Sequence record: OZ035743.1
DNA from: Phapecoctavirus DIJ07P1
Direction: 5' to 3' (one strand)
DNA: 64,000 bases
Shown here: one piece after another, positions 4,873 to 64,000 of the stretch
Position numbering within the stretch: the stretch's first letter is position 1
How the letters are laid out: each line of letters begins with the position of its first letter
Notes under the pieces: model-generated
What the model saw: the letters and a program-made list of their open reading frames with translations, nothing else
What the model was told of the DNA's origin: nothing
Database searches by the model: none
Position numbers and translations under genes: made by a program

Positions 4873-5265
4873 TTACATTAATTTTGCACAGAAAGAGCGG
4901 AGTCTTTCCATATCATCTTGCTCTAACAGGTATTTACCTTTACCTATTCCAACTCCAATTTCACCATTAGGAAAATGAACTATTTGCACTGGGAAACCTC
5001 CGAGTTTAATTGTGGCAGCTTTGCCTTCTTCGTCTATAACGTTTCGGATTGTATCTTGCAGTGAAATGAATTCTTTGTTTGTAACAGTGGTTTCAATTAT
5101 TTCAGATGTTTCGACACGAGCAGTTAGCTTCTTGTTTCCACCTTGAATAACCAAAATTTGAAAATAAAAAGAGTTGTCAAGACCTACAACATTTTTCTCA
5201 ACTAGTGTCAAACTGGTGTAGTTTCCATAAACAGTTTCAACAGCTATCTTAGAACGTTCAGTCAT
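4873..5265 (-). CDS. Hypothetical protein
   Basis: 130-aa ORF in compact minus-strand operon; no motif recognised. Confidence 0.55.
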   Translation of the reverse strand: MTERSKIAVETVYGNYTSLTLVEKNVVGLDNSFYFQILVIQGGNKKLTARVETSEIIETTVTNKEFISLQDTIRNVIDEEGKAATIKLGGFPVQIVHFPNGEIGVGIGKGKYLLEQDDMERLRSFCAKLM

Positions 5266-5310
5266 TGAATGCTATCCTATCATAAAATGTTTAATATTGT
5301 CAAGCTTTAA

Positions 5311-5904
5311 TTACCAAGGAATATCATCTTCTTCCAATCTGGTATCTACTTGAGGTGGACGTGGAACCTTAACCTCTTTCACAAAACGAAGATATGGGAA
5401 ACGTGTAGCAATTTTAATAACGTGTTTGGCATCTTCTCTAACATCTTTGTGCAAGAAGCAGATCCCTGTTTCCAAAGTTGTTTCAAAATCTTTAGAGTAA
5501 TAACAATCCTTCCCATCAAATGCAGCCTGGCAGATGGACAGATCAAACTCATTTAGAAAGGTTGTCATTACGCTTGGTTCCATAATCATAAGGTTGCAAA
5601 GCTGACCATCACGTTCAAACTCAAAAACGTGTTTAAGACCAGTAACACCCTCGTAGTTATCCGAAGCTTCTTTGTTTCCTAATTTACGAACATTAGTTCC
5701 CATCAAAGCAGATGCAATCAATTCTTGTATTTGCTCTTCTGATCGATGTGCAGGAAGAGACGTGTAAAAATCCAGATCACGTCCAGCAATATCAAGAATA
5801 CGCCAATCACGAACAGCGCCGCCAGCCAAGACAGAATTAGGATCAGCAATCTTTAATACGGTAAGAATTTCTTTGGCAATATTGATTTGTTTTGATTTAG
5901 TCAT
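5311..5904 (-). CDS. Pol-beta-type nucleotidyltransferase (CCA-adding-enzyme head-domain-like)
   Basis: 197 aa; LAGGAVRDW...DLD matches the GGxVRD plus DxD signature of tRNA nucleotidyltransferase head domains. Confidence 0.55.
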   Translation of the reverse strand: MTKSKQINIAKEILTVLKIADPNSVLAGGAVRDWRILDIAGRDLDFYTSLPAHRSEEQIQELIASALMGTNVRKLGNKEASDNYEGVTGLKHVFEFERDGQLCNLMIMEPSVMTTFLNEFDLSICQAAFDGKDCYYSKDFETTLETGICFLHKDVREDAKHVIKIATRFPYLRFVKEVKVPRPPQVDTRLEEDDIPW

Positions 5905-10459: not shown

Positions 10460-12236
10460 AATAGTTGCTATCCGTAGGCAAATTAGCAGGATTGTTGAAA
10501 TACTGCTCTTTGTCATGCAGAGTTGCAGTTCTAATATCATAGTAAAACTGCCCTGCTGGACCAGTCTCTGAGAACTCACGGTTTTTTAGGATAAAGCAAT
10601 GAGTCGTATTTCGTTCTACAGGGTCTTCAGCGGCTTTATCTCGTTCCAAAGCCAAGGTAATACCAGCACCTTTAGCCAAGAAACTACTACCCATTGCATC
10701 GTCCTCTGTTAAGTGTTCATTGCCACCATTAGCCGATTTCTTAACGTGTGAGATGACGATAATAGTTATAGCATACTCTTTCATGATGCGCTTCAACCAT
10801 GTTGCTAACTCTTCCTGGGCTTGAACATCCATACCAGAAAGCAAATCAGAATAAGGGTCGATAACAAGAATTGTTACTCCAAAATAGATGATCATCTCCA
10901 AAACTTTTTCTTTGATAGACTCCACATCTGCTCCACGATCATCACACACATAAAAACGTGGTGATCCATCTTCTCTTTCGTAAAAATCTAGAATTTTTTC
11001 TTTATTCTCTTCCAGGATTTGAAATTTCTCTTCCGGTGTTTTCCTATGTAGAGGAATGTGCAGGAAAGAGGACAACAGGTTACGAGAATATTTCTTATAG
11101 GTTGCTTCCAATGACAGAATACCGAGGGTATGTTCTGGGTGTGCAACGATAATATGTTTGGTGATCTCGTTCACCATCAAAGTTTTACCGATACTGGTCT
11201 TTGCCAGGATAACTGTAATCTCTTCCTCTACTAAACCACCACCCAGCATATTTGCAGCAACACGCATAAAAGGAGGCAAGGTAATCATCTTGGATTCCAA
11301 GCATTCTAATGCAGCTTCATACAAGACATTAGAAGCATAAACACCTGCTGGGGTGTATAGACGAGCACTCCAAAAAGCTTTTACGAAATCTTTTGCACGA
11401 CCTTCTTCCAGATACTGATTGGCATCCTTAAGATCCATCTGCATACGGTAGACTTTGTTACGAGGCAGCACCTTAACAATATTTTCAAATGCCTCATTAC
11501 CCGCTTTGTCATTATCCATGCAAACAATAATCTTCTTAAATTTTTCAAAGAAAGGATATTGTGCCTGAACTTGTTTATACATACTGGTTTCACCAGTTGT
11601 GCCACTAACTACTGCTGGAAGTTCATATTTGTTGTCCAAGTTTTCAGACAGCATCTGATAAGCTGCCAGAGCATCGTGTTCACCACCTGTAATTACAACA
11701 GTATGAGAACGGTCTGCAAAACGAATTTGTCCAAAAAGATCTACATCTTTACCTACTTGACCAATAGGTTTACTGAAATCTTTAGGATGAATACGACGCT
11801 TAAAACCAACCAATTCTTTACCGATAGTAGTCGGATATAAACAACTTTCTACTACCATCTGATCCCCTTCCTGACGGTATTCATAACGAACACCATAGAA
11901 AGATGAAACTTTTTCTTTAATACCTCGATAACCACGTGGGTTGGTTGATGTTTCTTGAACAATTTTACGATGAATCTGTTTATTAAATTCCGAACCCACA
12001 ATCTCCTCCTCTTCTTCTAAAACTTCACCATTTTCTCGTAACCATTCTACGCTAGGAATAGTGTATTCACACGCAAAGCACTTAGCACCTTTATGCTCTC
12101 CATTAGAATCTAATCCATAAACCATCAGGTTATTACGAGAGCGATCCTTGCCATTTTTCATGCAGCGCGGACAACCTGTATGCCCTTCCTTGCTAAGATC
12201 AACATCAAATCCATATTTAGTTATAATGTGCGACAC
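10458..12236 (-). CDS. Primase-helicase (T7 gp4-like: zinc ribbon, TOPRIM, DnaB-like helicase)
   Basis: 592 aa; N-terminal CPRC...CFAC zinc ribbon; central VVITGGEHDALAAYQ; C-terminal Walker A AKTSIGKT. Confidence 0.85.
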   Translation of the reverse strand: MSHIITKYGFDVDLSKEGHTGCPRCMKNGKDRSRNNLMVYGLDSNGEHKGAKCFACEYTIPSVEWLRENGEVLEEEEEIVGSEFNKQIHRKIVQETSTNPRGYRGIKEKVSSFYGVRYEYRQEGDQMVVESCLYPTTIGKELVGFKRRIHPKDFSKPIGQVGKDVDLFGQIRFADRSHTVVITGGEHDALAAYQMLSENLDNKYELPAVVSGTTGETSMYKQVQAQYPFFEKFKKIIVCMDNDKAGNEAFENIVKVLPRNKVYRMQMDLKDANQYLEEGRAKDFVKAFWSARLYTPAGVYASNVLYEAALECLESKMITLPPFMRVAANMLGGGLVEEEITVILAKTSIGKTLMVNEITKHIIVAHPEHTLGILSLEATYKKYSRNLLSSFLHIPLHRKTPEEKFQILEENKEKILDFYEREDGSPRFYVCDDRGADVESIKEKVLEMIIYFGVTILVIDPYSDLLSGMDVQAQEELATWLKRIMKEYAITIIVISHVKKSANGGNEHLTEDDAMGSSFLAKGAGITLALERDKAAEDPVERNTTHCFILKNREFSETGPAGQFYYDIRTATLHDKEQYFNNPANLPTDSNY

Positions 12237-23624: not shown

Positions 23625-24599
23625 TTAAACAGAAGCTTCTTCTTTTTCAGGGAAGATAAAGCTTGCAATAACACCAAGAGATAATGTGCCTAGAACAATC
23701 ATCAGACTTACGTTAGGGGAAATATCATGCGGGAGGAATGACCACTTGGCATGAAGTGTTTCACCGAACGGGTGATACATAAGTTTAGCACCAACAAACA
23801 CCAGAACCACAGCAACAGCTTTCTCTAAGTGAACCAGATATTTCACAGCTACACTTAACACAAAGAAAAGTGCACGTAAACCAAGAACAGCCATCAGCAT
23901 TGCAGAATAAACTAGCAGAGGTTCTTGTGTCACACCGATCACAGCCGGAACTGAATCAAAAGAGAAGACAATATCTGTAAGCTCAATAACAAACACACAA
24001 AGAAGAGCAGGAGTTGCATATTTAATACCATTCTTAATGGTGATGAACTTTTCACCATCCAGTGCATTGTGCACAGGCAGAACTTTACCTACTAAACGAA
24101 CAGCCCAATGTTTAGAGTAATCAATATCCTCTTCTTCGTCACCACCTTTGATGATAGCCACGGCAGACCAAGCTACAATCAAACCGAACAACACTTGGAC
24201 CGACCAATGAAGGTTAAACAAAGCGGTCCCTGCTGCAACAAAAATACCTCGGAAGACAATGGCTCCTGCAATCCCCCAAAGTAGAATCTTATGTTGGAGA
24301 TGTGTGCTCTTAATTCCAAAGCTTGCAAAAATTGCCATGAACACCATTAGGTTATCTACAGAAAGACTCTTTTCCAACACATAGCCACTTAGGAAAAGCG
24401 CGGCAAACTCTTTACCATGTTCTACCCAAATGAATGCGTAATACCCTAAAGCTAAAGCAATCCAAAAAACAGACCAAAGCAAAGCAGATTTAATTCCAAT
24501 TTCTTTATTCTCTTTATGACCAAAGAAATCGATACCAATAGACAATGCCAAAATACCAACTAAAACAACTACATCAATAATTGGGAAACCGAGTTGCAT
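23625..24599 (-). CDS. terC: TerC-family integral membrane protein
   Basis: 324 aa, multiple hydrophobic segments; EKSLSVDN matches TerC signature. Confidence 0.8.
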   Translation of the reverse strand: MQLGFPIIDVVVLVGILALSIGIDFFGHKENKEIGIKSALLWSVFWIALALGYYAFIWVEHGKEFAALFLSGYVLEKSLSVDNLMVFMAIFASFGIKSTHLQHKILLWGIAGAIVFRGIFVAAGTALFNLHWSVQVLFGLIVAWSAVAIIKGGDEEEDIDYSKHWAVRLVGKVLPVHNALDGEKFITIKNGIKYATPALLCVFVIELTDIVFSFDSVPAVIGVTQEPLLVYSAMLMAVLGLRALFFVLSVAVKYLVHLEKAVAVVLVFVGAKLMYHPFGETLHAKWSFLPHDISPNVSLMIVLGTLSLGVIASFIFPEKEEASV

Positions 24600-24616
24600 T
24601 CTTTTCTCCTCTCTCT

Positions 24617-24677
24617 GCGGGGGAACTATTCCCCCGCTTCATGTGATATATCTTACTCTTTTTAAGAACTATGTCAA
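24617..24677 (-). promoter_or_regulatory. Promoter-leader cassette driving terC (TTGACA-16-TAAGAT plus 5' leader hairpin)
   Basis: Minus strand reads TTGACA-tagttcttaaaaagag-TAAGAT-atatcacatgaa-GCGGGGGAATAGTTCCCCCGC-agagagaggagaaaag-ATG; same architecture as the 46.5-52.7 kb array. Confidence 0.7.
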
Positions 24678-45380: not shown

Positions 45381-45540
45381 GTTATTTTGTCCTATACAAA
45401 CCCTTGTCTTTTTCAGTTTGCATCACTAGGATTCGATCTGAGTGGGTTCCTGAAGGTTTACCAATAAGATTAAAGGTTATATCAAATTCCCACTATCTTT
45501 TATCTCAAAAATCCCTCAAATTATTTAAACTTTTTAAGAA

Positions 45541-45717
45541 TTTACAAAAATGAAAGTACAAAAGCAAAATTTAAAGTTTAGGAAAATTATCTTAAAATGT
45601 TAGATACAAAACAAAACTCAAAAGTCAAGGAAAATTTTAAAAATTTTGCGCGCCCACAGTATTTAAAGTTTTTTTGCTTTTACAAAAATGAAAGTACAAA
45701 AGCAAAATTTAAAGTTT
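45541..45717. repeat. 40-bp direct repeat pair in AT-rich intergenic region
   Basis: tttacaaaaatgaaagtacaaaagcaaaatttaaagttta at 45541..45580 and 45678..45717. Confidence 0.8.
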
Positions 45718-45740
45718 ACAAAAATTTTTATGCAGGTGAA

Positions 45741-45846
45741 AATGAGAAGAGTTCTCATATGGAAATGCAAATGATAATGATTCGCATTTAAGTTTATAAA
45801 TGAGATTGATTCTTATTTAATAAGGTAAATGACAATCATTCTCATT
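45741..45846. promoter_or_regulatory. Four tandem ~19-bp palindromes resembling the Fur box
   Basis: aatgagaagagttctcat; aatgataatgattcgcatt; aatgagattgattcttatt; aatgacaatcattctcatt at ~28-bp spacing; last copy matches GATAATGATAATCATTATC at 14/16 aligned positions. Confidence 0.45.
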
Positions 45847-46106
45847 TAGAGAATGACGCGCAGGGGCGGTGTTTGTCTCGCGCTCCCGTGTCCCCTCGCC
45901 ATGTAATAAGAATAACAGATCCAGCCAGGAAAGCAAGCGATTATTTTATCTTTACATTTCTTTACAAATATATAGCACCCAGCCTACCGGCGATCAACCT
46001 TCCAACCAGTGCCCCCTGGTATGTTAGCCCCGCCTTTACGCCGTGGGGTGGCGCTTCCTCTTCTGTATGTAAAACAGTATAAGCCCGATCCCTGGGCTTG
46101 TCAAGA

Positions 46107-46482: not shown

Positions 46483-46540
46483 TGACGTTAACCAGGCGGC
46501 GGCGTAGTATTCATCTTGTAGGGCGGCAATGGTGCCGCTC
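46483..46540 (+). promoter_or_regulatory. Promoter-leader cassette 1
   Basis: TTGACG-spacer-TAGTAT then tagGGCGGCAATGGTGCCGCtc leader hairpin. Confidence 0.6.
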
Positions 46541-46559
46541 ACTATTTGGAGTTAAGATC

Positions 46560-46757
46560 ATGGCAACATTGCACATTGTGGCGAAAGCTGGACAAATCAA
46601 CGTAGTGGTAAACGGTTTTACTGAGTTCAGTCACCCCCAGGATGATCATGAAACGGTTTTATCTTTCATTGATTCCCTGTTAGAAATGGGAGTCATTACA
46701 GAAGACCAGCACGCTACAAAATGCAAGCGCGTTAATCAAATTGCAGGAATAGAATAA
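46560..46757 (+). CDS. Hypothetical small protein
   Basis: Start set at MATLHIVAK after GGAG RBS. Confidence 0.55.
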   Translation: MATLHIVAKAGQINVVVNGFTEFSHPQDDHETVLSFIDSLLEMGVITEDQHATKCKRVNQIAGIE

Positions 46758-46763
46758 AAAGTA

Positions 46764-46823
46764 TTGACAACAAACAACAACCTGATAAGATGTATCACAT
46801 AGGGCGGCGGAATGGTCCACCGC
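46764..46823 (+). promoter_or_regulatory. Promoter-leader cassette 2
   Basis: TTGACA-16-TAAGAT-gtatcacat-aGGGCGGCGGAATGGTCCACCGC; then cacaacagaagagagattatcatc-ATG. Confidence 0.7.
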
Positions 46824-46848
46824 TCACAACAGAAGAGAGATTATCATC

Positions 46849-47121
46849 ATGGCATCATATAGCGCAACAATGATCGTAGCTGGCACCACTGGTAAACCTA
46901 TGCGCGGTGGCGGATCTTTCGCTAATATCAATATTGACGGGCGTTTATCCCTGGACGCAGCGATCACCGTGGCGCGGGAAACATTTAAGAAAGAATGTAA
47001 ATTCAATAAACAAGATTATCTCGGTTTTGCTATTGAAAAAACCGCGCGCTTTGTTGATTATAAAAGCCCGAAAATGGTTGACACTACATTAAAAGCGCAA
47101 GATGTAGCGTTTTTGCTTTAA
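46849..47121 (+). CDS. Hypothetical small protein
   Basis: 90-aa ORF after cassette 2. Confidence 0.6.
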   Translation: MASYSATMIVAGTTGKPMRGGGSFANINIDGRLSLDAAITVARETFKKECKFNKQDYLGFAIEKTARFVDYKSPKMVDTTLKAQDVAFLL

Positions 47122-47124
47122 GGC

Positions 47125-47180
47125 TTGACATTAACGAATAATTTGTTAATATGTTACATAAAGCGGGAATAGTTCCCGCT
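47125..47180 (+). promoter_or_regulatory. Promoter-leader cassette 3
   Basis: TTGACA-16-TAATAT then GCGGGAATAGTTCCCGC hairpin. Confidence 0.65.
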
Positions 47181-47197
47181 ATTTGTAAGGTGGTAGA

Positions 47198-47455
47198 ATG
47201 TTTTACATCAAATTAAAAGGTCACGTGATCGCGTTCAAAGATAACGCTTTTTACAGATTAGCAAAATATGCGTTAATACATCCCCACTATGTTTATATAA
47301 GGGGGCGTGATGAAATAAATATCTTTGATCAAACAACATGCGAGAACATCGAGATCCGCAAGGTTGGCGTACGTGATTATCGTACATCTTTCTACCCTTG
47401 CAAGGATTCAGCAAGTCTTTTTAAAGTATGCCAATTGTTGAAAAAAGGTGGTTAA
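47198..47455 (+). CDS. Hypothetical small protein
   Basis: 85-aa ORF, RBS AAGGTGG. Confidence 0.6.
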   Translation: MFYIKLKGHVIAFKDNAFYRLAKYALIHPHYVYIRGRDEINIFDQTTCENIEIRKVGVRDYRTSFYPCKDSASLFKVCQLLKKGG

Positions 47456-48014
47456 TATGGGCCGCGAATATGTGATCCAGTCTTGGGTAAAACATGAAGC
47501 AGATGATCCGCGCATCATTCCCGATCATCTTATCGATGAATCCACGGGATATAGTGGTGAGCAAATAGGTAACAGATTAGCACGTAGTAACGGCAACGTA
47601 AAAGCGCGTTATGTGCGCCCTGGTTGGCTGGCAAATGGTAACGCTGATTTATCCAGTGCGGAAGATGCGAGCGACGGCGCGAAAGATAATCCTTTGTACA
47701 AAGTTGATCCAGCTTTTCGTGTCCTGGATGAATACCCCAGCAAGATAGCGGCGCTCGATCAGGCCCTGGAAAGTAAGCGCATCACCTGGACCGCTTACAA
47801 CATGGCAAAAAACGTACTTGATGGTAAATTGATTCAAGCTGAAAGAAAATTAGCCAAAATTGCAGCCATAGCCCAGGAGGAAGACGAGGAGACAACGGAA
47901 GAGGAAGAGTACGAAGAGATCCCGCCGTTGTTGTGTGTTGATGCTTTTCCTGATTATCAGCCGACAGAGGAAGAAAAAAGGATCGCACTAGAAAACTTTG
48001 AAAATAGTCTTTGA
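47448..48014 (+). CDS. Hypothetical acidic protein
   Basis: 188-aa ORF co-transcribed with previous; start 47448 or 47456. Confidence 0.6.
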   Translation: MVNMGREYVIQSWVKHEADDPRIIPDHLIDESTGYSGEQIGNRLARSNGNVKARYVRPGWLANGNADLSSAEDASDGAKDNPLYKVDPAFRVLDEYPSKIAALDQALESKRITWTAYNMAKNVLDGKLIQAERKLAKIAAIAQEEDEETTEEEEYEEIPPLLCVDAFPDYQPTEEEKRIALENFENSL

Positions 48015-48068
48015 CATATCGCCGCCACTGGCATAATATTTACCACGTAGGGCGGCAATGGTGCCGCT
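48012..48068 (+). promoter_or_regulatory. Promoter-leader cassette 4
   Basis: TTGACA-16-CATAAT then GCGGCAATGGTGCCGC hairpin. Confidence 0.65.
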
Positions 48069-48096
48069 CATAGTGAAATTATGCAAGAGGCTTACA

Positions 48097-48192
48097 ATGA
48101 TTAATAAAGAAAATAGCTTGACGGTTGGAACGATTAACGCTATCATTCTAGCCGTTCCATTTTGGGTTGTAGTAGCGGCTATTATTTTCTAA
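48097..48192 (+). CDS. 31-aa hydrophobic peptide
   Basis: MINKENSLTVGTINAIILAVPFWVVVAAIIF read manually; RBS AAGAGG; only ORF after cassette 4. Confidence 0.4.
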   Translation: MINKENSLTVGTINAIILAVPFWVVVAAIIF

Positions 48193-48200
48193 AAATATTC

Positions 48201-48261
48201 TTGACAACGTTTTTTAATCTGATAAGATGTATCACATAGGGCGGCGGAATACTTCCCCGCC
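48201..48261 (+). promoter_or_regulatory. Promoter-leader cassette 5
   Basis: TTGACA-16-TAAGAT-gtatcacat-aGGGCGGCGGAATACTTCCCCGCC. Confidence 0.7.
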
Positions 48262-48284
48262 AAAACAAAAAAAAGGGTAACACA

Positions 48285-48647
48285 ATGAGCAAGCAAATCA
48301 ATACTATCATGTTTAATCTGGTATCTTTCCGCGATGATATGAAAAATTTACCACGTGAAACGGTTGATATTCATGTTTCAGCTTATCGCGCCCTTATTGA
48401 CATGTTACCGCTAAAACGTGATCAACATGCCGCTAATATGATGCTTAATGCTATGCTTAAAAAGATGATTCAAACGGATCTTACTCTGGCGTATGAGTAT
48501 CAAGGGCGCTTATATGCGACTTACAACAAAGCGGTACCTGGTCTGGGAAGTACCGAAGAGTTGCACGGCTTAAACCTGGATCAAAACACTTGGGATAGTA
48601 TGCGCCGCGTTATGGTATGGGCCGAAAGCGGTAAAATTTACGAATAA
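48285..48647 (+). CDS. Hypothetical protein
   Basis: 120-aa ORF. Confidence 0.6.
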   Translation: MSKQINTIMFNLVSFRDDMKNLPRETVDIHVSAYRALIDMLPLKRDQHAANMMLNAMLKKMIQTDLTLAYEYQGRLYATYNKAVPGLGSTEELHGLNLDQNTWDSMRRVMVWAESGKIYE

Positions 48648-48654
48648 AAACGGT

Positions 48655-48710
48655 TGACACTGTTTAAACTTCTGGTATAGTTTATCACGTAGGGCGGCAA
48701 TGGTGCCGCC
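48655..48710 (+). promoter_or_regulatory. Promoter-leader cassette 6
   Basis: TTGACA-16-TATAGT-ttatcacgt-aGGGCGGCAATGGTGCCGCC. Confidence 0.7.
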
Positions 48711-48730
48711 AACAATAAAAGGTTAACATC

Positions 48731-48910
48731 ATGGCTATCATTGCAAAAACTGAGATTATAGGTTTAGATTCGATCCTCCTGGCTTATGAGGAAACTTTAA
48801 AAATGTATGTAGTGACCTATGGTGATTATGTGCGTGAATACGAATACATTGATCTTGCTTTCGAATGTTACATTCGCCAGGTCAATAAAGCCTATAATGA
48901 TTATCGTTAA
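48731..48910 (+). CDS. Hypothetical small protein (59 aa, below ORF-track cutoff)
   Basis: MAIIAKTEIIGLDSILLAYEETLKMYVVTYGDYVREYEYIDLAFECYIRQVNKAYNDYR read manually. Confidence 0.5.
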   Translation: MAIIAKTEIIGLDSILLAYEETLKMYVVTYGDYVREYEYIDLAFECYIRQVNKAYNDYR

Positions 48911-48929
48911 AAGTTTTAGTCTTATACTA

Positions 48930-48981
48930 TTGACAATGAGTGATAGTATAAGCATAATAACTTTTATCGGGAATACTTCCC
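48930..48981 (+). promoter_or_regulatory. Promoter-leader cassette 7 (degenerate hairpin)
   Basis: TTGACA-17-CATAAT then CGGGAATACTTCCC. Confidence 0.55.
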
Positions 48982-49007
48982 ACTAACCAAAAAGAGAGAG
49001 TGACACC

Positions 49008-49373
49008 ATGGCTATTAATATCAATGTTTCCGCTTATGCTACCCTGGCTAACACGGCTAAAATTGAATTATCCAGCATTGAGGCGGTGCATATTAGCGCC
49101 CGTCGCTGGTTTCAACAGTCCTACGGTAACACATATTTTTCTTTAATGGTTGACGTTGAGATCGGCGGTAAACTGATCGAGGTGGTTAACGTTCCGTTTC
49201 AATATGGCTATGGTGATCATTTTGATACCGTCGCCCTGGAAGAATTTAGCAAGGTTATCAACCTTGAGGGCAAGGAATTTTCACGCGGCGCGTATCTTTC
49301 CCGTTTTTGCCGTGACAATGGGATCACTGTATACAGTCATGCAAGCGATGTAAAACGTAAAAAAGATTTATAA
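49008..49373 (+). CDS. Hypothetical protein
   Basis: 121-aa ORF. Confidence 0.6.
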   Translation: MAININVSAYATLANTAKIELSSIEAVHISARRWFQQSYGNTYFSLMVDVEIGGKLIEVVNVPFQYGYGDHFDTVALEEFSKVINLEGKEFSRGAYLSRFCRDNGITVYSHASDVKRKKDL

Positions 49374-49379
49374 AAAGCA

Positions 49380-49438
49380 TTGACAGCACGAATAAAAAGA
49401 GTAAACTGTATTACATAGAGAGCGGGAATAGTTCCCGC
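49380..49438 (+). promoter_or_regulatory. Promoter-leader cassette 8
   Basis: TTGACA-16-TAAACT-gtattacatagaga-GCGGGAATAGTTCCCGC. Confidence 0.65.
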
Positions 49439-49462
49439 CTCATTCAAAGAGAGATTATCATC

Positions 49463-49702
49463 ATGGCTATTACTAAAACTTACAACGGTCACAAAAACAA
49501 AACTCACTGGAATGTAAGCCTTTGGATTAATAACGACGAATCATTATATCGGTTGGCGAAAGAATTTATCGCCGCTAATACTAATCGTAATGATGCTGCC
49601 CGTGATATGATGTTATTCCTGGAACAAACTGGACAAGATAAAACTCCAGACGGTTTCAAGTATAGCACTACAGCGATCCGCGCCGCGATGGTTGGAATGT
49701 AA
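49463..49702 (+). CDS. Hypothetical small protein
   Basis: 79-aa ORF. Confidence 0.6.
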   Translation: MAITKTYNGHKNKTHWNVSLWINNDESLYRLAKEFIAANTNRNDAARDMMLFLEQTGQDKTPDGFKYSTTAIRAAMVGM

Positions 49703-49711
49703 TAAAAACAG

Positions 49712-49771
49712 TTGACAACGTTTAAAATTAGTGTAAGATGTATCACATAGGGCGGGAAGTGGTTTCCCGCC
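49712..49771 (+). promoter_or_regulatory. Promoter-leader cassette 9
   Basis: TTGACA-16-TAAGAT-gtatcacat-aGGGCGGGAAGTGGTTTCCCGCC (perfect 8-bp stem). Confidence 0.7.
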
Positions 49772-49793
49772 AACAACAGAGAGATTAAAGATT

Positions 49794-50021
49794 ATGGCTA
49801 TCAATATTGTTCGCGTATCCGGCACCGTTGGCACTTCCCAGGTTATTGCAGTTGTAACAAACAAAAAGATTAATGATGTATGTGAGATCTTGAATAAGTG
49901 GGCTATTGCTAATTTTGGGGAATATGCAAGCGTCGAGTACATCGAATCCTACCAGGTGCCAACCATCAGCCTGACCGATCTCAACGTTGATCGCCTGTTA
50001 TGCCTGGATGAATTAATCTGA
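49794..50021 (+). CDS. Hypothetical small protein
   Basis: 75-aa ORF. Confidence 0.6.
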   Translation: MAINIVRVSGTVGTSQVIAVVTNKKINDVCEILNKWAIANFGEYASVEYIESYQVPTISLTDLNVDRLLCLDELI

Positions 50022-50032
50022 AAAAGATTGTT

Positions 50033-50086
50033 GACACGGGAAAGAAAAAGAGTAAACTGTTACAGGTAGGGCGGGAATAGTGCCGC
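50033..50086 (+). promoter_or_regulatory. Promoter-leader cassette 10 (hybrid hairpin)
   Basis: TTGACA...TAAACT-gttacaggt-aGGGCGGGAATAGTGCCGC; 5' arm of one variant with 3' arm of another. Confidence 0.6.
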
Positions 50087-50111
50087 TCACAACAGAAGAG
50101 AGATTATCACG

Positions 50112-50324
50112 ATGGCTAATATCCGCACACTGTTAAAAAATGCAAGTCAAGTTTTATTTTCTGATCACGATCATTTTAATAAAGATATTACAGGCGTGAA
50201 GAATATCAAAGATGTAAAAAGTGTTATGGGTATATATTGCAATGTTAAACGTGTTGGAACGTTCGGTGATAAAGTATTGTACCAATCAGGTGATTACAAT
50301 TTTACTTTGACGATTATTTCATAA
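50112..50324 (+). CDS. Hypothetical small protein
   Basis: 70-aa ORF. Confidence 0.6.
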   Translation: MANIRTLLKNASQVLFSDHDHFNKDITGVKNIKDVKSVMGIYCNVKRVGTFGDKVLYQSGDYNFTLTIIS

Positions 50325-50329
50325 AACGC

Positions 50330-50391
50330 TTGCAATACTGCAAAAATAAAGTAAACTGTATTACATCAAGGCGGCGGAATGGTCCACCGCC
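50330..50391 (+). promoter_or_regulatory. Promoter-leader cassette 11
   Basis: TTGCAA...TAAACT-gtattacatca-aGGCGGCGGAATGGTCCACCGCC. Confidence 0.6.
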
Positions 50392-50415
50392 TAACAAAGA
50401 GAAGAGGAAAATATT

Positions 50416-50583
50416 ATGATCACTTTCGCTACCCGTGAAGCCGCTCGCAACGTTGCACGTAAAGTTAACGCCGCCAACCTGGGCGCTACGCTTAAAGCCC
50501 CTGTAAAAGATGAATCAGGAAAATGGATCTTCCCTGGTCTACGTCATGCTGACAAGTTAGGTACTTTAAGCCTTAAAAAATAA
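50416..50583 (+). CDS. Hypothetical small basic protein (55 aa, below ORF-track cutoff)
   Basis: MITFATREAARNVARKVNAANLGATLKAPVKDESGKWIFPGLRHADKLGTLSLKK read manually; shares MITFA start with 50836..51057. Confidence 0.5.
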   Translation: MITFATREAARNVARKVNAANLGATLKAPVKDESGKWIFPGLRHADKLGTLSLKK

Positions 50584-50585
50584 TC

Positions 50586-50625
50586 GTTGACTTTTCGTTA
50601 TAGCGCCTTATAATGGGCGCTATAG
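50586..50625 (+). promoter_or_regulatory. Promoter with -10 embedded in a palindrome
   Basis: TTGACT-17-TATAAT with atagcgcc / ggcgctat inverted repeat flanking the -10. Confidence 0.55.
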
Positions 50626-50660
50626 AGAAGAGAAACCAGTCACAACAGAGAGAAAATATC

Positions 50661-50822
50661 ATGACCAATAAAGAAAAAGCCATCATTAAAGCACATTATC
50701 CACATCTAACATTACGTTTTAAAGCCGATGGATCTGTTATGGCCTCCAGTGGGCGCGGGTATGCTTACGGTTTACTTTACACCGCACAACAAGCGCAAGA
50801 TCATTTAAACGCAGTAAAATAA
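50661..50822 (+). CDS. Hypothetical small protein
   Basis: Start set at MTNKEK after GAGAGAAAA RBS (ORF track begins 50613). Confidence 0.5.
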   Translation: MTNKEKAIIKAHYPHLTLRFKADGSVMASSGRGYAYGLLYTAQQAQDHLNAVK

Positions 50823-50835
50823 CAAGGAAACCATT

Positions 50836-51057
50836 ATGATCACTTTCGCTATTGTCGCCGTTGTTGCTGGTCAAGTTTACGTAAATGAGACATTTACTAC
50901 AGAAGACAAGGCAGCAGGAGATATAACCGCCGTTTACAATGAGTGCAAGGCAGTAGAAAGGATGTTAGCGCCTTGTATGCTAATGAGTGAACGCCAGGAC
51001 GGAATAACAGTATTTACTAACATTGGAACAGGGTACCAAATGGTAGTAACAAAATAA
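50836..51057 (+). CDS. Hypothetical small protein with hydrophobic N-terminus
   Basis: 73-aa ORF, RBS AAGGAAA. Confidence 0.55.
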   Translation: MITFAIVAVVAGQVYVNETFTTEDKAAGDITAVYNECKAVERMLAPCMLMSERQDGITVFTNIGTGYQMVVTK

Positions 51058-51060
51058 AGC

Positions 51061-51117
51061 TTGACACCGATTTAATTTTTAGTAAACTGTTACAGGTAGG
51101 GCGGGAATAGTTCCCGC
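51061..51117 (+). promoter_or_regulatory. Promoter-leader cassette 12
   Basis: TTGACA...TAAACT-gttacaggt-aGGGCGGGAATAGTTCCCGC. Confidence 0.7.
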
Positions 51118-51136
51118 TCAAAAAGAGAGAAAGACC

Positions 51137-51490
51137 ATGAAAGCACAAAATGCAATTAAAGAGTACATCCTTGCCGCTATCGATTTTAATGATTACGGTA
51201 TTACAACCGAAAAAGAGAAGATCGCGGAATTGATGCGCCGTTTTAATTCCGAGTACTGGTACCCTGATAACCAATCACGTTTTAATTATAGTATTGTTAA
51301 AGCACTTGCATCATGGTTACAAGGTTTGCCATCAGATATCAATATCGCTTTCGAATATTGGGAAATTGATCGCTTGTTAACATCCTGGGGATACATTAAA
51401 GAGAATAGCAGCGATGATAAAATCCAACGAGAAAGGGAAAATTATTGGCTTTATATTGCAGGCGTGATCCTTGCTTGCTCTTATGAATGA
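51137..51490 (+). CDS. Hypothetical protein
   Basis: 117-aa ORF. Confidence 0.6.
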   Translation: MKAQNAIKEYILAAIDFNDYGITTEKEKIAELMRRFNSEYWYPDNQSRFNYSIVKALASWLQGLPSDINIAFEYWEIDRLLTSWGYIKENSSDDKIQRERENYWLYIAGVILACSYE

Positions 51491-51496
51491 TAAACC

Positions 51497-51549
51497 TTGA
51501 CAATTTTACAAAACAGTTTAAATTAACAATATAGCGGCAATGGTGCCGC
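51497..51549 (+). promoter_or_regulatory. Promoter-leader cassette 13
   Basis: TTGACA-16-TAAATT...ataGCGGCAATGGTGCCGC. Confidence 0.6.
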
Positions 51550-51568
51550 TCATATGAAGAGGAAACAA

Positions 51569-51715
51569 AATGAATACATCTAATCGCGCAGAAAAAATTC
51601 AATCTTCCAAGATCCGCAAGGCCTGGAACGAGGAAGTGATCCGCAAAGGCGACAAGCGTAATAAAACAAAGCGCGGGAAGAGTGACAAATATAATTGGAT
51701 GGATTTAGAGGATTA
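51569..51715 (+). CDS. 48-aa Lys/Arg-rich basic protein (below ORF-track cutoff)
   Basis: MNTSNRAEKIQSSKIRKAWNEEVIRKGDKRNKTKRGKSDKYNWMDLED, codons checked manually; RBS GAGGAAA. Confidence 0.5.
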
Positions 51716-51722
51716 ACATAAC

Positions 51723-51749
51723 AAGGGCGCATCAAGCGCCCTTTCTTTT
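51723..51749 (+). terminator. Rho-independent terminator (copy 1 of a repeated terminator)
   Basis: agggcgcatcaagcgccct followed by ttcttttt. Confidence 0.75.
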
Positions 51750-51771
51750 TACATGTAGAGGATAAACAAAA

Positions 51772-51957
51772 ATGACTTTAAACGAGCTTAAAACAGCCTA
51801 CAACGCAACATTAAAAATAGCCGTGCGTTACCGTGATGCGTATGGTTTTATCGCGCAGGGCGTGATCCTGGGCTTTTCTGACGATGGTTTGATCTATGTT
51901 GATGCACATCACAACAAGGTTAAACCTGAAAACGTCATTAGCATAAAATATCTTTAA
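51772..51957 (+). CDS. Hypothetical small protein
   Basis: 61-aa ORF, RBS AGAGGA. Confidence 0.55.
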   Translation: MTLNELKTAYNATLKIAVRYRDAYGFIAQGVILGFSDDGLIYVDAHHNKVKPENVISIKYL

Positions 51958-51963
51958 AAACGG

Positions 51964-52020
51964 TTGACAGCATAACCAAGTATGATAAGATGTATCACGT
52001 AGGGCGGGAATAGTTCCCGA
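51964..52020 (+). promoter_or_regulatory. Promoter-leader cassette 14
   Basis: TTGACA-16-TAAGAT-gtatcacgt-aGGGCGGGAATAGTTCCCG. Confidence 0.7.
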
Positions 52021-52042
52021 CCACATAAAAGAGAAAAACATT

Positions 52043-52255
52043 ATGACCACTATCACAACAAAACAAGAAAAAATTATTACAGACATTGCCGCAGTAGCCG
52101 CTATTGCTATTATTGGTACCTACTATGACACCGCGCGACCTTCCTCCTTACATGAGATCGCCGCCGTTGCATCAGTTGGCGTACTGTTTTACGTTGGTAA
52201 ACGCTATTTATCACCAATGATTAACAAGCTGACACCGTGGAAAAATAAAGGTTGA
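52043..52255 (+). CDS. Small membrane protein
   Basis: 70 aa, hydrophobic core. Confidence 0.55.
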   Translation: MTTITTKQEKIITDIAAVAAIAIIGTYYDTARPSSLHEIAAVASVGVLFYVGKRYLSPMINKLTPWKNKG

Positions 52256-52261
52256 TCCTGT

Positions 52262-52316
52262 TTTATATTGTGTTATAGTTATCGTGTAGGGCGGCAATGG
52301 TGCCGCGCCCCTTTGA
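52262..52316 (+). promoter_or_regulatory. Promoter-leader cassette 15
   Basis: TTGATC-16-TATAGT-tatcgtgt-aGGGCGGCAATGGTGCCGC. Confidence 0.6.
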
Positions 52317-52326
52317 GGATGCAATC

Positions 52327-52611
52327 ATGCGTAAAGCTAACACCGTGCTAATGTTTTCCCTGATTAATAATGCCGCTTACTTGTCCAACATGACGCAGGA
52401 GGGTAACACATTAACGGCAACATTCACCAATAAGCTTGACCGAGTGATCATAATCTCACTGAAAACAGTTAGTAAAGGCTTTTACTCGTTAGCTTATCAT
52501 TGTATCACTGACACCGACGAGACAAGCCAGGACTATAGCGCCCCTTTCCCTGAATCAATGGCACGGGAGATCATCGCCGCCGTTGTAAATGATGGTTTGT
52601 TTACTGCATAA
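52327..52611 (+). CDS. Hypothetical protein
   Basis: Start set at MRKANT after GAGGATG RBS. Confidence 0.55.
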   Translation: MRKANTVLMFSLINNAAYLSNMTQEGNTLTATFTNKLDRVIIISLKTVSKGFYSLAYHCITDTDETSQDYSAPFPESMAREIIAAVVNDGLFTA

Positions 52612-52627
52612 AATAATTCAGAAAAGG

Positions 52628-52686
52628 CTTGCAATAATTTTCAGACCGTGTATATTTAATTCATAGGGCGGCGGGAATAGTTCCCT
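52628..52686 (+). promoter_or_regulatory. Promoter-leader cassette 16 (degenerate)
   Basis: TTGCAA...TATATT...catagGGCGGCGGGAATAGTTCCC. Confidence 0.55.
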
Positions 52687-52708
52687 AAGCAAACGAGAGG
52701 ATTACACG

Positions 52709-52828: not shown

Positions 52829-52966
52829 GGTGCGTACTATGAAAACAACAGACATTATCAAAGAGATCGCCCTTGCCGCTGACGTTGAGATCGAGGAAGT
52901 GATCGCGCTCAACCTTACAGAAAACGATCTACTCAATCTATGAAGCGTTATAATTGACAACAAAAC

Positions 52967-52993
52967 AAGGGCGCACCAAGCGCCCTTTCTTTT
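52967..52993 (+). terminator. Rho-independent terminator (copy 2, near-identical to 51723..51749)
   Basis: agggcgcaccaagcgccct followed by ttcttttt. Confidence 0.75.
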
Positions 52994-52994
52994 T

Positions 52995-54495
52995 GCCCGA
53001 ACAATGTTGATAGCTTTCGCCTATGAAAAACCGACACAGAACAAAACTGAATAAATCGCGGTATCGAGCTAATCAACCAGCAAACGAATAACCATACCTC
53101 CCAGGGTTACAGGCTGTTAGAGAGCCATTTAGAGCGGTTAAAATCGATCAACAACCAACAACAAACCATCAAAAACACCCTTTTACCTCCTTTCTAGTGC
53201 AATGATAACCATTATCATCTACCCATGATTATCTATGCAATATAAGCGCATAATTATAATGTTGATAATAGTTCGCAACAACTAACCAACAAACAACATA
53301 AAACAATAAGCAAACTAATCATAATCAAAGGAATAATAGCAAGATGATTGATAACGACAAACAATCAAACCATGATGAATACTAAGCAAGATAACGATAA
53401 CACGACAAAACAACCAACTAACGAACAATAACAAACGAAACCATTAAAATAATAACTATTAGCAAAATAGTGCATGAATGAAATCATTACAAAACGAATC
53501 ATTCACAGAGTCATCATTAGCACGCTATGCCGGACACATAGCGAGCTAATAATAAGCCAACTACACCCCAACAATCATAACCATCGGTGACGGTTATTTC
53601 TTGTTACTGCGTAGCTTGCAATAATTGCAAGCGTAATGACGCTTACACTTATTGCGCTGGCTTATTATTAGCATTATATGTAATTACCAAGATCATAACA
53701 TTAGCGCAATAACAATAGTCATTGTGATAATTACAAGATGAGATCATTAGCAAGATGAATAATTGCACGTAGCAACATGAGCGAATAGCGACAGGTTGCA
53801 TAGTGTGCACATAGTGTATAAACATACAAGAAAATAAAGGCTAATCTTTTGGGGGCGAATACTATCGCGTAGCGATATGTTGAGCACCTTCTCTTAAACG
53901 TAAATAAAATCAGAAAATTCTTGATTTATTTTGGCTTTTATGTTAATAAACGTTTAAATAATAATCATTCTCATATAAATAATAGTCTGCTTGTCATGAG
54001 CGGCATTAGTTGACATTGTTCCGTCATATGATGAAGTTGCCAAGCCATTGATAAATAAGTGTTTGTGTGATTTATAATCAGGTGGCCCACCTTGTCGCTA
54101 TGTTGGCATGAGCCTTGCATAAGTCATTGAATACGAATGATAATTATTCTCATTCGCATGATATTTGGGAATTGTCGCTGCGTGGACCTGACGGCCCGAA
54201 AATTCGCGTTAAGCACTTCTTACGTATGCGCCATGATTTTTGCCATATGATATTGATTCTATTAGATATTCTTGCCATTATTGCCATGAAACAGGGTGTG
54301 TCGAAATAATTGCTCCCCGTAGATATTTTGGGTTACTTTTTATACAAGAGTGGGGTGTCAAAAATAATCGGTATATATGGGATAATTGATAGGAATCCCC
54401 TATGATAATTCGATTGTAATTCCCTAAGATTGATCGTATGATGTTGGTGATTGATGATTGCCATGAAAGATGGCTAACGATGAGAGGAGATTGTC
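52995..54495. other. A/C-rich, strand-asymmetric non-coding region (~1.5 kb)
   Basis: No convincing ORF; plus strand dominated by A and C with recurring CAAGATGA / GATAACGA / ATCATTAGC words. Confidence 0.6.
53957..54157. promoter_or_regulatory. Fur-box-like palindromes (second locus)
   Basis: aataataatcattctcat (53957..53974) and cgaatgataattattctcattcg (54135..54157); same motif family as 45741..45846. Confidence 0.45.
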
Positions 54496-61899: not shown

Positions 61900-62148
61900 A
61901 TGCTGAATGTTTTTACTACTGATCGTGTAGGAACACCGATTACCGAAGAAGAACGTGCAGAGATTACAAAAGAGTTGGAAGATCTTTACCGTGTTTTCTC
62001 TGATGAAGAAAGCATTAAAAAAGATGCTGAAAAGATGACAGATCTGTTGGGTTTTACTTGGTCCCCAGAATGGACCGCTGTTGCTCTTAGTGCAGATATT
62101 TGGGGGTATGAAGAAACCCTACGCACTGGGGTAGTGGCAGCTTGGTAA
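61900..62148 (+). CDS. Hypothetical small acidic protein
   Basis: 82-aa ORF. Confidence 0.55.
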   Translation: MLNVFTTDRVGTPITEEERAEITKELEDLYRVFSDEESIKKDAEKMTDLLGFTWSPEWTAVALSADIWGYEETLRTGVVAAW

Positions 62149-62220
62149 TATGATAGAGACTATCATTTTCATTGTTCTGGCTATTATTTTGGGTTTCTTA
62201 ATATATGAATAGAGGTATTT

Positions 62221-62676
62221 ATGACTAAAGTGCGACATTATGCTGTAAACTGCAACGATGTTTGGCGTTTGTGTCCTGATGATCCGACAGAAGGCACATT
62301 TGTAAGATATGAGGATTATAAAGAGTTATCGGATGCTGTGATCGCATTGTTAACCGATATCCGTTCACGTTATCCAGGACAAGATTTCACTTGCCCTCAC
62401 ATCAAACTTCTTGCTTGTCTGGTAGAAGGTGAGAAAGAAGTGGAAGATGGCTTCAAGCGTGTAGAGTATCAAGGTGAAACTTTAGATGTTCCTGAATTTG
62501 TTAATTATATTGCAACAGATTCAAGTGGCGAGCGTTATGGTTACACTCATAAACCGGAGATTCCAGATTTCGTTTATGCGTGGCGTATTCCTTATGAAGT
62601 TTTTAATGTTGCAGATTGCTGGTATTTAGGAGAAGGAAACAACCTTAATTGGCGTGACTCCTTGGTTCAGGTTTAA
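62221..62676 (+). CDS. Hypothetical protein
   Basis: 151-aa ORF. Confidence 0.6.
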   Translation: MTKVRHYAVNCNDVWRLCPDDPTEGTFVRYEDYKELSDAVIALLTDIRSRYPGQDFTCPHIKLLACLVEGEKEVEDGFKRVEYQGETLDVPEFVNYIATDSSGERYGYTHKPEIPDFVYAWRIPYEVFNVADCWYLGEGNNLNWRDSLVQV

Positions 62677-62941
62677 CAATATGAAAGAAACATTGCCAGC
62701 AGCATATCGTTTGAATGATGAACGTATTTGGGAGTGGACCGACGTTTCTTGTTTTTACCCTGAAATAGTTCAATATTGGCGAGCGAAAGGATGTGTTGTA
62801 GTTATCAACCCTTGTGGACCAGTAGATGAAGATTGCTTGTATCTCGATGGGAAGTGGCACAGTTATTGTCGCTGGCCTTTTGAGTGGATGTGTAAAGAAG
62901 ATCTCCCAGAGGGTTGGGAGTATCCAATTAATGACTCTTAA
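62654..62941 (+). CDS. Hypothetical Cys/Trp-rich protein
   Basis: 95-aa ORF; start uncertain (62654 or 62681). Confidence 0.5.
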   Translation: MTPWFRFNNMKETLPAAYRLNDERIWEWTDVSCFYPEIVQYWRAKGCVVVINPCGPVDEDCLYLDGKWHSYCRWPFEWMCKEDLPEGWEYPINDS

Positions 62942-63075
62942 GCACGGTTCGTTTGAGGTTTGGTTTGATGACATTGATGTAAATGGTTTTCATCCTGGCT
63001 ATAAAATCGCTATGCAGTTATCTTATCGTAGAGAAGTTGTAGCACATTTGGGTTTACATAACTAAGGAGAAAAGA

Positions 63076-63399
63076 ATGCAAGCAGTTGTTAACGAAGCTA
63101 TTATGAACTTATCCTTCTTGTTAGCTGGTTTAGGAGGTGTTCTCATAGGTTTGGCTCTTATCTGGTGTATTCGTCGATTAATCGGGTACCGACAAAAAGG
63201 TGTTTCATGTTTTGTATCTTACAATTTTACAACTGCTTACAGCAATGAGGTTGGATCTGGCAATGCTCAAGCATTTTTACCAACATATCCTCCTACGGTG
63301 GAAGATATTCGAAACTTGGAAGTAGAACTTATGGGACTAGGTGATAACTATACATCTCTAGTTATTCAAAATATTTTTCGACTAAAACAGGGGGCGTGA
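63076..63399 (+). CDS. Membrane protein
   Basis: 107 aa; hydrophobic N-terminal segment; RBS AAGGAGAA. Confidence 0.6.
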   Translation: MQAVVNEAIMNLSFLLAGLGGVLIGLALIWCIRRLIGYRQKGVSCFVSYNFTTAYSNEVGSGNAQAFLPTYPPTVEDIRNLEVELMGLGDNYTSLVIQNIFRLKQGA

Positions 63400-63612
63400 A
63401 TGAAGGTACATTACCCTCATCCATTTGATCCTAAAAACAAAGCCGTAATTCTTCGTCAGTGGCAACGGGTTTGTCGTACTAAATGTCCAATCAATAGCCC
63501 ACACAATGTAGACAAGGACTATCTTGGGACATTTGTTGAATACACTTACATAGACAAAAACAAGCGTAAACAACATGTCGAGGAATACTGCTTAAGAGTA
63601 GAATGGCTGTAA
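63400..63612 (+). CDS. Hypothetical small basic protein
   Basis: 70-aa ORF. Confidence 0.55.
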   Translation: MKVHYPHPFDPKNKAVILRQWQRVCRTKCPINSPHNVDKDYLGTFVEYTYIDKNKRKQHVEEYCLRVEWL

Positions 63613-63672
63613 ATAATAAAGACCTTGACAAGTGTTTATTCGTTTTGTAAAGTGAGAATACAGCAATGGTTT

Positions 63673-64000
63673 AGGAGTGGTTATGAAAAAGTTTGTTGTT
63701 TACAGTCGTCTTTCTAAACAGAAAAAAGGTGAGGCACAATATGGTATGGAGAGCCAAGAGAATGATATCCGTTACTTCTTAGACTCTGTGCCTGATGCGG
63801 AAGTTATTGGTCAATTTTCTGAATACTATTCGGGTAAGGGCGATTGGAAGCAACGTAAGGAACTGGTTAAAGCGGTTGAAATGTGTAAAGCTACCGGAGC
63901 AACTTTATTGGTAGCTAAAGTTGACCGCTTGGGTCGTAACAACGCCTCCGTAGCAACTCTTCTAGAAATGATCGATGTTAAGATAGCCATCATGCCAGAC
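63673..64000 (+). CDS. Serine recombinase (resolvase/invertase), N-terminal part; runs off window
   Basis: MKKFVVYSRLSKQKKGEAQYGMESQENDI...LLVAKVDRLGRN matches catalytic-domain pattern (YxRxS...Q...D...RLxR); RBS AGGAG; TTGACA promoter-like at 63633. Confidence 0.7.

Follow-up and report, generated by a model that had tools for sequence, protein, structure and literature searches.

A putative resolvase-type serine recombinase conserved among Phapecoctaviruses

Why do virulent phages retain a conserved site-specific recombinase whose catalytic site looks intact? This modest biological question is raised by the end of a 64,000-nucleotide stretch of DNA from Phapecoctavirus DIJ07P1 (sequence record OZ035743.1; hereafter the window), where a first-pass annotation had noted a serine recombinase gene in an otherwise virulent-looking genome. 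The question also has a practical side, as Phapecoctaviruses are popular candidates for phage therapy and biocontrol, and in screening pipelines any recombinase raises the suspicion of a temperate lifestyle. The following features were located at the window end.

63625-63653, + strand: sigma-70-type promoter-like site from a pattern scan, with -35 TTGACA (63625-63630), a 17-nt spacer and -10 TAAAGT (63648-63653)
63673-63677, + strand: ribosome-binding site AGGAG, read from the sequence, 5 nt before the ATG
63683-64000, + strand: 5' part of the serine recombinase gene (106 of 223 codons), from translation, PF00239 and identity to phAPEC8 and UP17; cut by the window end
63701-63715, + strand: active-site motif Y7-S8-R9-L10-S11 (YxRxS type), with Y7, R9 and S11 invariant in 64 homologues
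63923-63937, + strand: active-site motif D81-R82-L83-G84-R85 (DRLGR), with D81, R82 and R85 invariant in 64 homologues

Translation starts at the ATG at 63683-63685, and the frame is still open at position 64000, leaving 106 codons visible; the start coordinate given previously, 63673, is the first base of the ribosome-binding site and not the start codon. The visible fragment matches PF00239 (Resolvase, N-terminal domain) with an E-value of 1.6e-12 and 48.2 bits (cut-off 23.3) and contains all the catalytic residues, in agreement with the earlier description of a resolvase/invertase-type catalytic domain at the window edge. It is 100% identical to residues 1-106 of the phAPEC8 and UP17 proteins, which are 223 amino acids long each. 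Ser11, encoded at 63713-63715, is the predicted nucleophile. The PDB alignments span query residues 45-146 only, and place D81, R82 and R85 opposite D67, R68 and R71 of gamma-delta resolvase, an independent check of the second motif; in the N-terminal YxRxS motif, which lies outside this span, Y7, R9 and S11 would correspond to Y6, R8 and S10 of gamma-delta resolvase.

The complete orthologue matches PF00239 over residues 5-142 (E=5e-18, 66 bits, cut-off 23.3), and its residues 187-216 match positions 19-48 of the 102 positions of PF07508 below the cut-off of 21.1 (E=0.003, 18.2 bits). In a Pfam search of the full protein at E<=1 these were the only matches, with no HTH_7 or Hin-type helix-turn-helix (PF02796). 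The C-terminal helices carry a motif, ...IA..LN..G..T.RGG.W....V..L, that is common to large serine recombinases. An AlphaFold model of the orthologue, built on 64 homologues (mean pLDDT 89), consists of an alpha/beta catalytic core, a long helix comprising residues 109-139 and five short C-terminal helices, with everything from the long helix onward lying past the window end. The roughly 75-residue helical end, a putative DNA-binding region, is apparently a cut-down start of the 'recombinase domain' of large serine recombinases. The first-pass annotation had proposed to distinguish between a large C-terminal domain and a short helix-turn-helix, and the protein has neither: it is 223 amino acids long, lacks HTH_7, and matches only the first third of PF07508 at a sub-threshold score.

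The best Foldseek matches in the PDB are Sin, gamma-delta resolvase and Bxb1 integrase, and the closest PDB relatives by sequence are the Tn3 and gamma-delta resolvases. The hallmarks of the PF00239 family were found together, namely the domain score, the Y-x-R-x-S motif with the Arg/Asp cluster and, as seen in the model, the long E helix followed by a DNA-binding domain. No variation occurs at Y7, R9, S11, Q25, R58, D81, R82 or R85 in 64 homologues that range down to approximately 30% identity, and 62 records encode a protein with 99.6-100% identity, against only ~96-98% identity to the query in the surrounding DNA. Judged from its sequence, the protein looks like a catalytically competent small serine recombinase. 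The suspicion that the full protein might lack the catalytic serine context or be a truncated pseudogene is contradicted by the orthologues, which are intact and keep the catalytic residues, and finds some support in phage Schickermooser, where the gene is apparently broken.

The window belongs to Phapecoctavirus (phAPEC8-like myoviruses of the Stephanstirmvirinae), with 96-99% identity to dozens of records by megablast. A tblastn search detected the recombinase in 161 of 50,697 phage records. Identity is at least 99% in 62 of these, and falls to ~80% in Schickermooser (two records), ~74% in phiWec-type phages, ~57% in phi92-like Justusliebigvirus, 51-55% in Klebsiella Stephanstirmvirinae, 35-38% in Vibrio and Shewanella myoviruses and ~30% in some ICP1 isolates. 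The gene was matched in each of the 71 Phapecoctavirus-type records with a match to the local DNA. No difference was found to gp216 of phAPEC8 (YP_007348417), which is 100% identical over the 106 window residues and has the same promoter and flanks, whereas gp053 of phi92 ('putative recombinase, resolvase family protein / DNA invertase') is 57% identical over its full length and lies in another genomic block.

The gene is already annotated in GenBank, as 'putative site-specific recombinase' (phAPEC8 gp216), 'serine recombinase', 'resolvase' or 'DNA invertase', and hence is not new. In many Phapecoctavirus records (for instance OR062524, MT496970 and OM386659) it is labelled '(putative) methionine ABC transporter ATP-binding protein', an erroneous name that has spread from record to record. 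A literature search found no experimental or functional study of a recombinase from this phage clade. One paper speculates on the handling of concatemers by the recombinase (PMC10282059), the absence of any recombinase is asserted in two papers on sister phages (PMC5374246, PMC10269720), and strictly lytic behaviour has been reported for these phages (PMC5374246, PMC10282059). The description of the genome as virulent-looking is consistent with its assignment to Phapecoctavirus-type myoviruses and with the absence of a prophage copy from 5,426 complete E. coli genomes.

The pattern TTGACA-17-TAAAGT taken alone is not above chance, with one occurrence found against 3.1 expected from shuffles of positions 62800-64000. 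Between the terminal repeat described below and the window end, the pattern scan gave 63625-63653 as the sole plus-strand site that scores at least 10/12 with a perfect TTGACA. The arrangement CTTGACAA...TTTGTAAA(G/A)TG is kept ahead of the orthologue in ESCO13 and phiWec181, even though these two phages have a different upstream ORF and lack the intergenic gap, itself just 70 bp long. A TTGACA or TTGACT likewise stands before the recombinase of phi92, KP13-16, Shewanella phage 1/4 and ICP1, and the promoter elements are conserved in six lineages. Promoter and recombinase gene thus appear to behave as one conserved unit, and early, autonomous transcription by the host RNA polymerase from 63625-63653 can reasonably be inferred. 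The gene's own promoter-like sequence, proposed in the first-pass annotation, is upheld by the site and by the conservation of its elements across lineages, with a presumed function as promoter. The same -35/-10 pair was considered as a crossover site, as it forms a loose dyad, TTGACAA...TTGTAAA; the spacing of this dyad differs by 1 nt between lineages, and the pair is therefore read as a promoter.

Phage Schickermooser has a 329-bp direct terminal repeat (PMC6563267). This repeat maps to window positions 53883-54211, within the non-coding region 52950-54495, which places the physical left genome end inside the window. The ends and several inner blocks of the terminal repeat are also conserved in the repeat of Justusliebigvirus BME3. 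The recombinase gene is located approximately 9.8 kb from the terminal repeat in a block of small rightward ORFs; its neighbours are small co-directional ORFs with no tail-fibre genes among them, and in the orthologue genomes the next gene begins 8-9 nt past the recombinase stop codon.

The position of the gene varies between relatives. Its predecessor in phi92 and KP13-16 is a gp054-like gene, and the site is inside or adjacent to a block coding for PhoH, HslV, a phosphatase and a DprA-like protein, and in phi92 and Shewanella phage 1/4 it lies among PhoH, HslV and DprA-like genes, joined by a ligase gene in the Shewanella phage. ESCO13 has the same PhoH block gene for gene without the recombinase (locus L018, 15935-16378, against locus L003 of phi92, 4998-5660), and carries the recombinase in the left-end early region instead. 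The different slots in phi92/KP13-16 and ESCO13 imply that the cassette has moved between sister genera. Homology of ESCO13 to phAPEC8 begins exactly at the recombinase start codon. A mosaic junction is also present in the window itself at 62000-62920, as upstream of 62921 the relatives match elsewhere or not at all. In ICP1 isolates from the DRC, for whose genomes 10.6 kb of novel sequence has been reported (PMC9707599), the recombinase sits between gp30 and gp41, where a run of genes has been newly annotated, and the genes adjoining this homologue gave no Pfam matches.

In Schickermooser (MK373788), positions 11303-11601 correspond to window positions 63683-64000 and contain six small deletions (1, 1, 7, 1, 2 and 7 nt) in the first 250 nt of the gene, and the alignments flanking the recombinase are gap-free. 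These deletions represent either a real inactivation that leaves a pseudogene or a local assembly artefact. Together with the presence of the gene in only some ICP1 isolates, they suggest that the recombinase gene is accessory; by comparison of the genomes, it appears not to be essential.

The reading that we favour, to which we tentatively assign a probability of about 0.4, is that the protein is an accessory enzyme of the resolvase type, expressed early and directed at the phage's DNA. Located in the left-terminal early block, the gene would be driven by a host-type (sigma-70-like) promoter of its own, and the enzyme would work in the manner of plasmid and transposon resolvases: a dimer would bind a specific site, two such sites would synapse, Ser11 would cut all four strands, and the ends would be religated after rotation of the subunits. 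The substrate would be phage DNA, for example replicating genomes that are monomerised or circularised. The catalytic domain, the active-site residues and the E helix match those of Tn3, gamma-delta, Sin, beta and RK2 ParA, a group that includes the best PDB matches by sequence and fold, and a resolvase-type directionality may be anticipated. By contrast with this group, the C-terminal domain of the phage protein is not of the HTH_7 type, its loop before helix E is shorter by approximately 8 residues, and dyad scans, which degenerate sites could escape, revealed no multi-subsite res region adjoining the gene.

The relatives of the phage protein on plasmids point in the same direction. Full-length homologues (35-40% identity, with 95-99% of the length aligned) were found on 110 plasmids, of which 92 are non-mobilizable; the plasmids include some of 5.8-6.5 kb with 5-6 genes from Klebsiella, Marinovum and Synechococcus. 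A lone serine recombinase on a small plasmid classically serves multimer resolution, as established for RK2 ParA, Sin and beta. We infer from this analogy that the plasmid homologues of the phage protein probably have the same role. On the 5.8-kb Klebsiella plasmid (NZ_CP118334), a 34-bp dyad (16+2+16), TATCATTTGTTTGCCG-aa-CGGCAAATTTATGATA, is present at 4323-4356, 34-67 bp upstream of the homologue, and is a candidate crossover or operator site.

Several observations speak against a resolvase. Multimer resolution is not an evident requirement for a phage that packages from concatemers, the homologues on plasmids are themselves uncharacterised, and neither a target site nor a res-like dyad array upstream of the gene was found. 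In the search of 15 homologues, no dyads of at least 10/12 occurred within 200 bp upstream of any phage orthologue, and 28-bp dyads (13+2+13) showed no genome-wide excess over shuffled controls; real sites can be more degenerate than either search assumes.

It is possible, albeit unlikely, that promoter and gene form a moron-like, semi-autonomous cassette that is selfish or whose enzyme targets foreign DNA (for example satellites, co-infecting phages or host defence loci) and not the replication of the phage itself. Its appeal lies in the mobility described above, with promoter and gene travelling together while their position changes between phi92/KP13-16 and ESCO13, a mosaic junction right at the 5' end of the gene in ESCO13, an ICP1 copy amid newly annotated genes in genomes with novel sequence, and an apparently broken gene in Schickermooser. 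Against such a cassette, the gene is retained in 71 of 71 Phapecoctavirus-type records and throughout the subfamily, its catalytic residues do not vary, and no foreign target is known. Moreover, the 8-9 nt between the stop codon and the next gene leave no room for element ends. The IS607-family TnpA is of similar size and has a serine catalytic domain, and ISC1926 TnpA is among the fold matches; the order of the domains is nevertheless reversed, as TnpA begins with the N-terminal MerR-type DNA-binding domain of IS607-like serine transposases, which the phage protein lacks, its catalytic domain starting at residue 2-5.

A reading that we regard as distinctly unlikely takes the resolvase interpretation further: this whole subfamily of strictly virulent, terminal-repeat myoviruses would keep a plasmid-type multimer resolvase among its early genes since its genomes pass through a circular stage. 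Circularisation of the incoming genome might use a site within or close to the 329-bp terminal repeats; alternatively, the enzyme might monomerise circular replication intermediates. If true, this would constitute an unrecognised step in the replication cycle of phAPEC8- and phi92-like phages.

A DNA invertase, which would flip a distant phage segment or promoter in the manner of Mpi, or a segment of the host, is quite improbable. This reading draws on PHROG 125, 'DNA invertase', as the best PHROG match (E=2.6e-32), on a match to the Mpi master-invertase model that is weak (E=6.9e-5) and far below its cut-off, and on the several GenBank entries named 'DNA invertase'. Gin, Cin, Hin and Pin are, like the window protein, phage-encoded small serine recombinases and share its PHROG label; the window protein departs from them in lacking HTH_7, an invertible segment next to its gene and tail-fibre neighbours, and in showing no inversion polymorphism across ~60 genomes.

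The flanks of the gene were compared in a query reaching from approximately 1 kb upstream to 5.6 kb downstream, which is matched by 75 records; in 61 of the 75, a single place covers at least 80% of the query. Among the matches listed, the Phapecoctavirus-type records align with the recombinase flanks as a single colinear piece with 97-99% identity, and all split matches are due to record ends. Likewise, window positions 1-25000 and the 25-kb structural and tail-fibre module are colinear in Phapecoctavirus and Justusliebigvirus among the matches listed, where the differences consist of extra inserted sequence in some records and never of inversions; colinearity is read here from consensus assemblies, which could hide minority isomers. 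Scans for repeats revealed no credible segment flanked by inverted repeats in the surroundings of the phAPEC8 gene, across the whole window or in the remainder of the ESCO13 genome, at thresholds that could miss short degenerate or imperfect sites. The scans, for both inverted and direct repeats, also covered the ICP1 and prophage contexts, and their output consisted of terminator hairpins, promoter cassettes and weak pairs at chance level. The best pair flanking the gene (locus L002, 6290-6327 and 8426-8463) is 38 nt long and 74% identical, lies inside two co-directional ORFs and was treated as a chance match. We conclude that no invertible segment lies just downstream of the gene, and that there is no sign of one elsewhere. 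The first-pass annotation had suggested both such a segment and an invertase for tail-fibre switching; the former is contradicted by 5.6 kb of downstream sequence that is colinear in ~60 genomes without flanking inverted repeats, and the latter by the missing HTH_7 and tail-fibre neighbours and by a tail-fibre module that shows no inversion.

An integrase or a function in episome maintenance, implying a hidden temperate, carrier or plasmid-like state, is very improbable. In its favour, relatives are found on small plasmids and in prophage- or satellite-like loci, and Ralstonia phage phiRSM uses a resolvase-like small serine recombinase as its integrase. The C-terminal helix motif and the weak PF07508 match are shared with the Bxb1, phiC31 and TP901-1 integrases, and Bxb1 is the second-best fold match, with an alignment that extends past the catalytic domain. 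These integrases have more than 450 amino acids, and large serine recombinases in general more than about 400, as opposed to 223 in the phage protein, from which most of the recombinase domain is missing, with nothing matched beyond it and no prophage form found; the zinc-ribbon and coiled-coil parts of large serine integrases are absent from the full protein (Pfam, E<=1). At temperate or satellite-like loci, the relatives adjoin a separate large serine recombinase or tyrosine integrase. A megablast search with the gene and its flanks found nothing among the 20,395 records that make up 5,426 complete E. coli genomes, and the lytic behaviour reported for these phages also weighs against a temperate state. 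The integrase option put forward at the outset is thus disfavoured by a length of 223 amino acids with a partial PF07508, by the lack of an E. coli prophage copy and by the separate integrases of temperate relatives. In our view, the enzyme serves neither to integrate the phage nor to flip a tail-fibre cassette. The short architecture, the absence of E. coli prophage copies and the separate integrases of the temperate relatives argue that the recombinase gene is not a lysogeny marker.

That the gene is an inactive relic with no present function is hardly credible, as the six small deletions in Schickermooser and the lack of any reported phenotype are set against invariant catalytic residues, a conserved promoter and a protein that stays 99.6-100% identical in 62 records despite diverging flanking DNA.

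Other features of the window were noted in the course of the analysis. A region of ~1.2-1.5 kb from ~45299 contains only short unconvincing ORFs, together with a 72-nt direct repeat, 88% identical between its copies at 45517-45588 and 45655-45726, and a GC-rich stretch at 45850-46100. Scans of the window for tRNA genes and Rfam families found nothing, this region included.

A 19-bp palindrome, AATGAKAATWATTMTCATT, occurs in 7 copies in the window against 0.23 expected (45741-45846, 53201-53219, 53957-53975 and 54136-54154). Four of them follow each other in non-coding DNA at a spacing of exactly 29 bp, and two fall within the terminal repeat. The palindromes match the E. coli Fur box (consensus GATAATGATAATCATTATC) at approximately 14-15 of 19 positions, and could be iterons, origin sites or operator sites. 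The conserved copies in the terminal repeat were considered as a recombinase target and set aside, as they are of odd length and Fur-box-like, and nothing links them to the recombinase.

Window positions 46500-52700 contain at least 10 repeated cassettes, in which a strong promoter (TTGACA-N16-TAAGAT) leads into GTATCACRTAGGGCGG and a GC-rich hairpin. Each cassette precedes a short ORF, and an inverted copy is present at 24594-24664. These cassettes resemble the promoter-stem-loop 'mobile regulatory cassettes' of T4-type phages.
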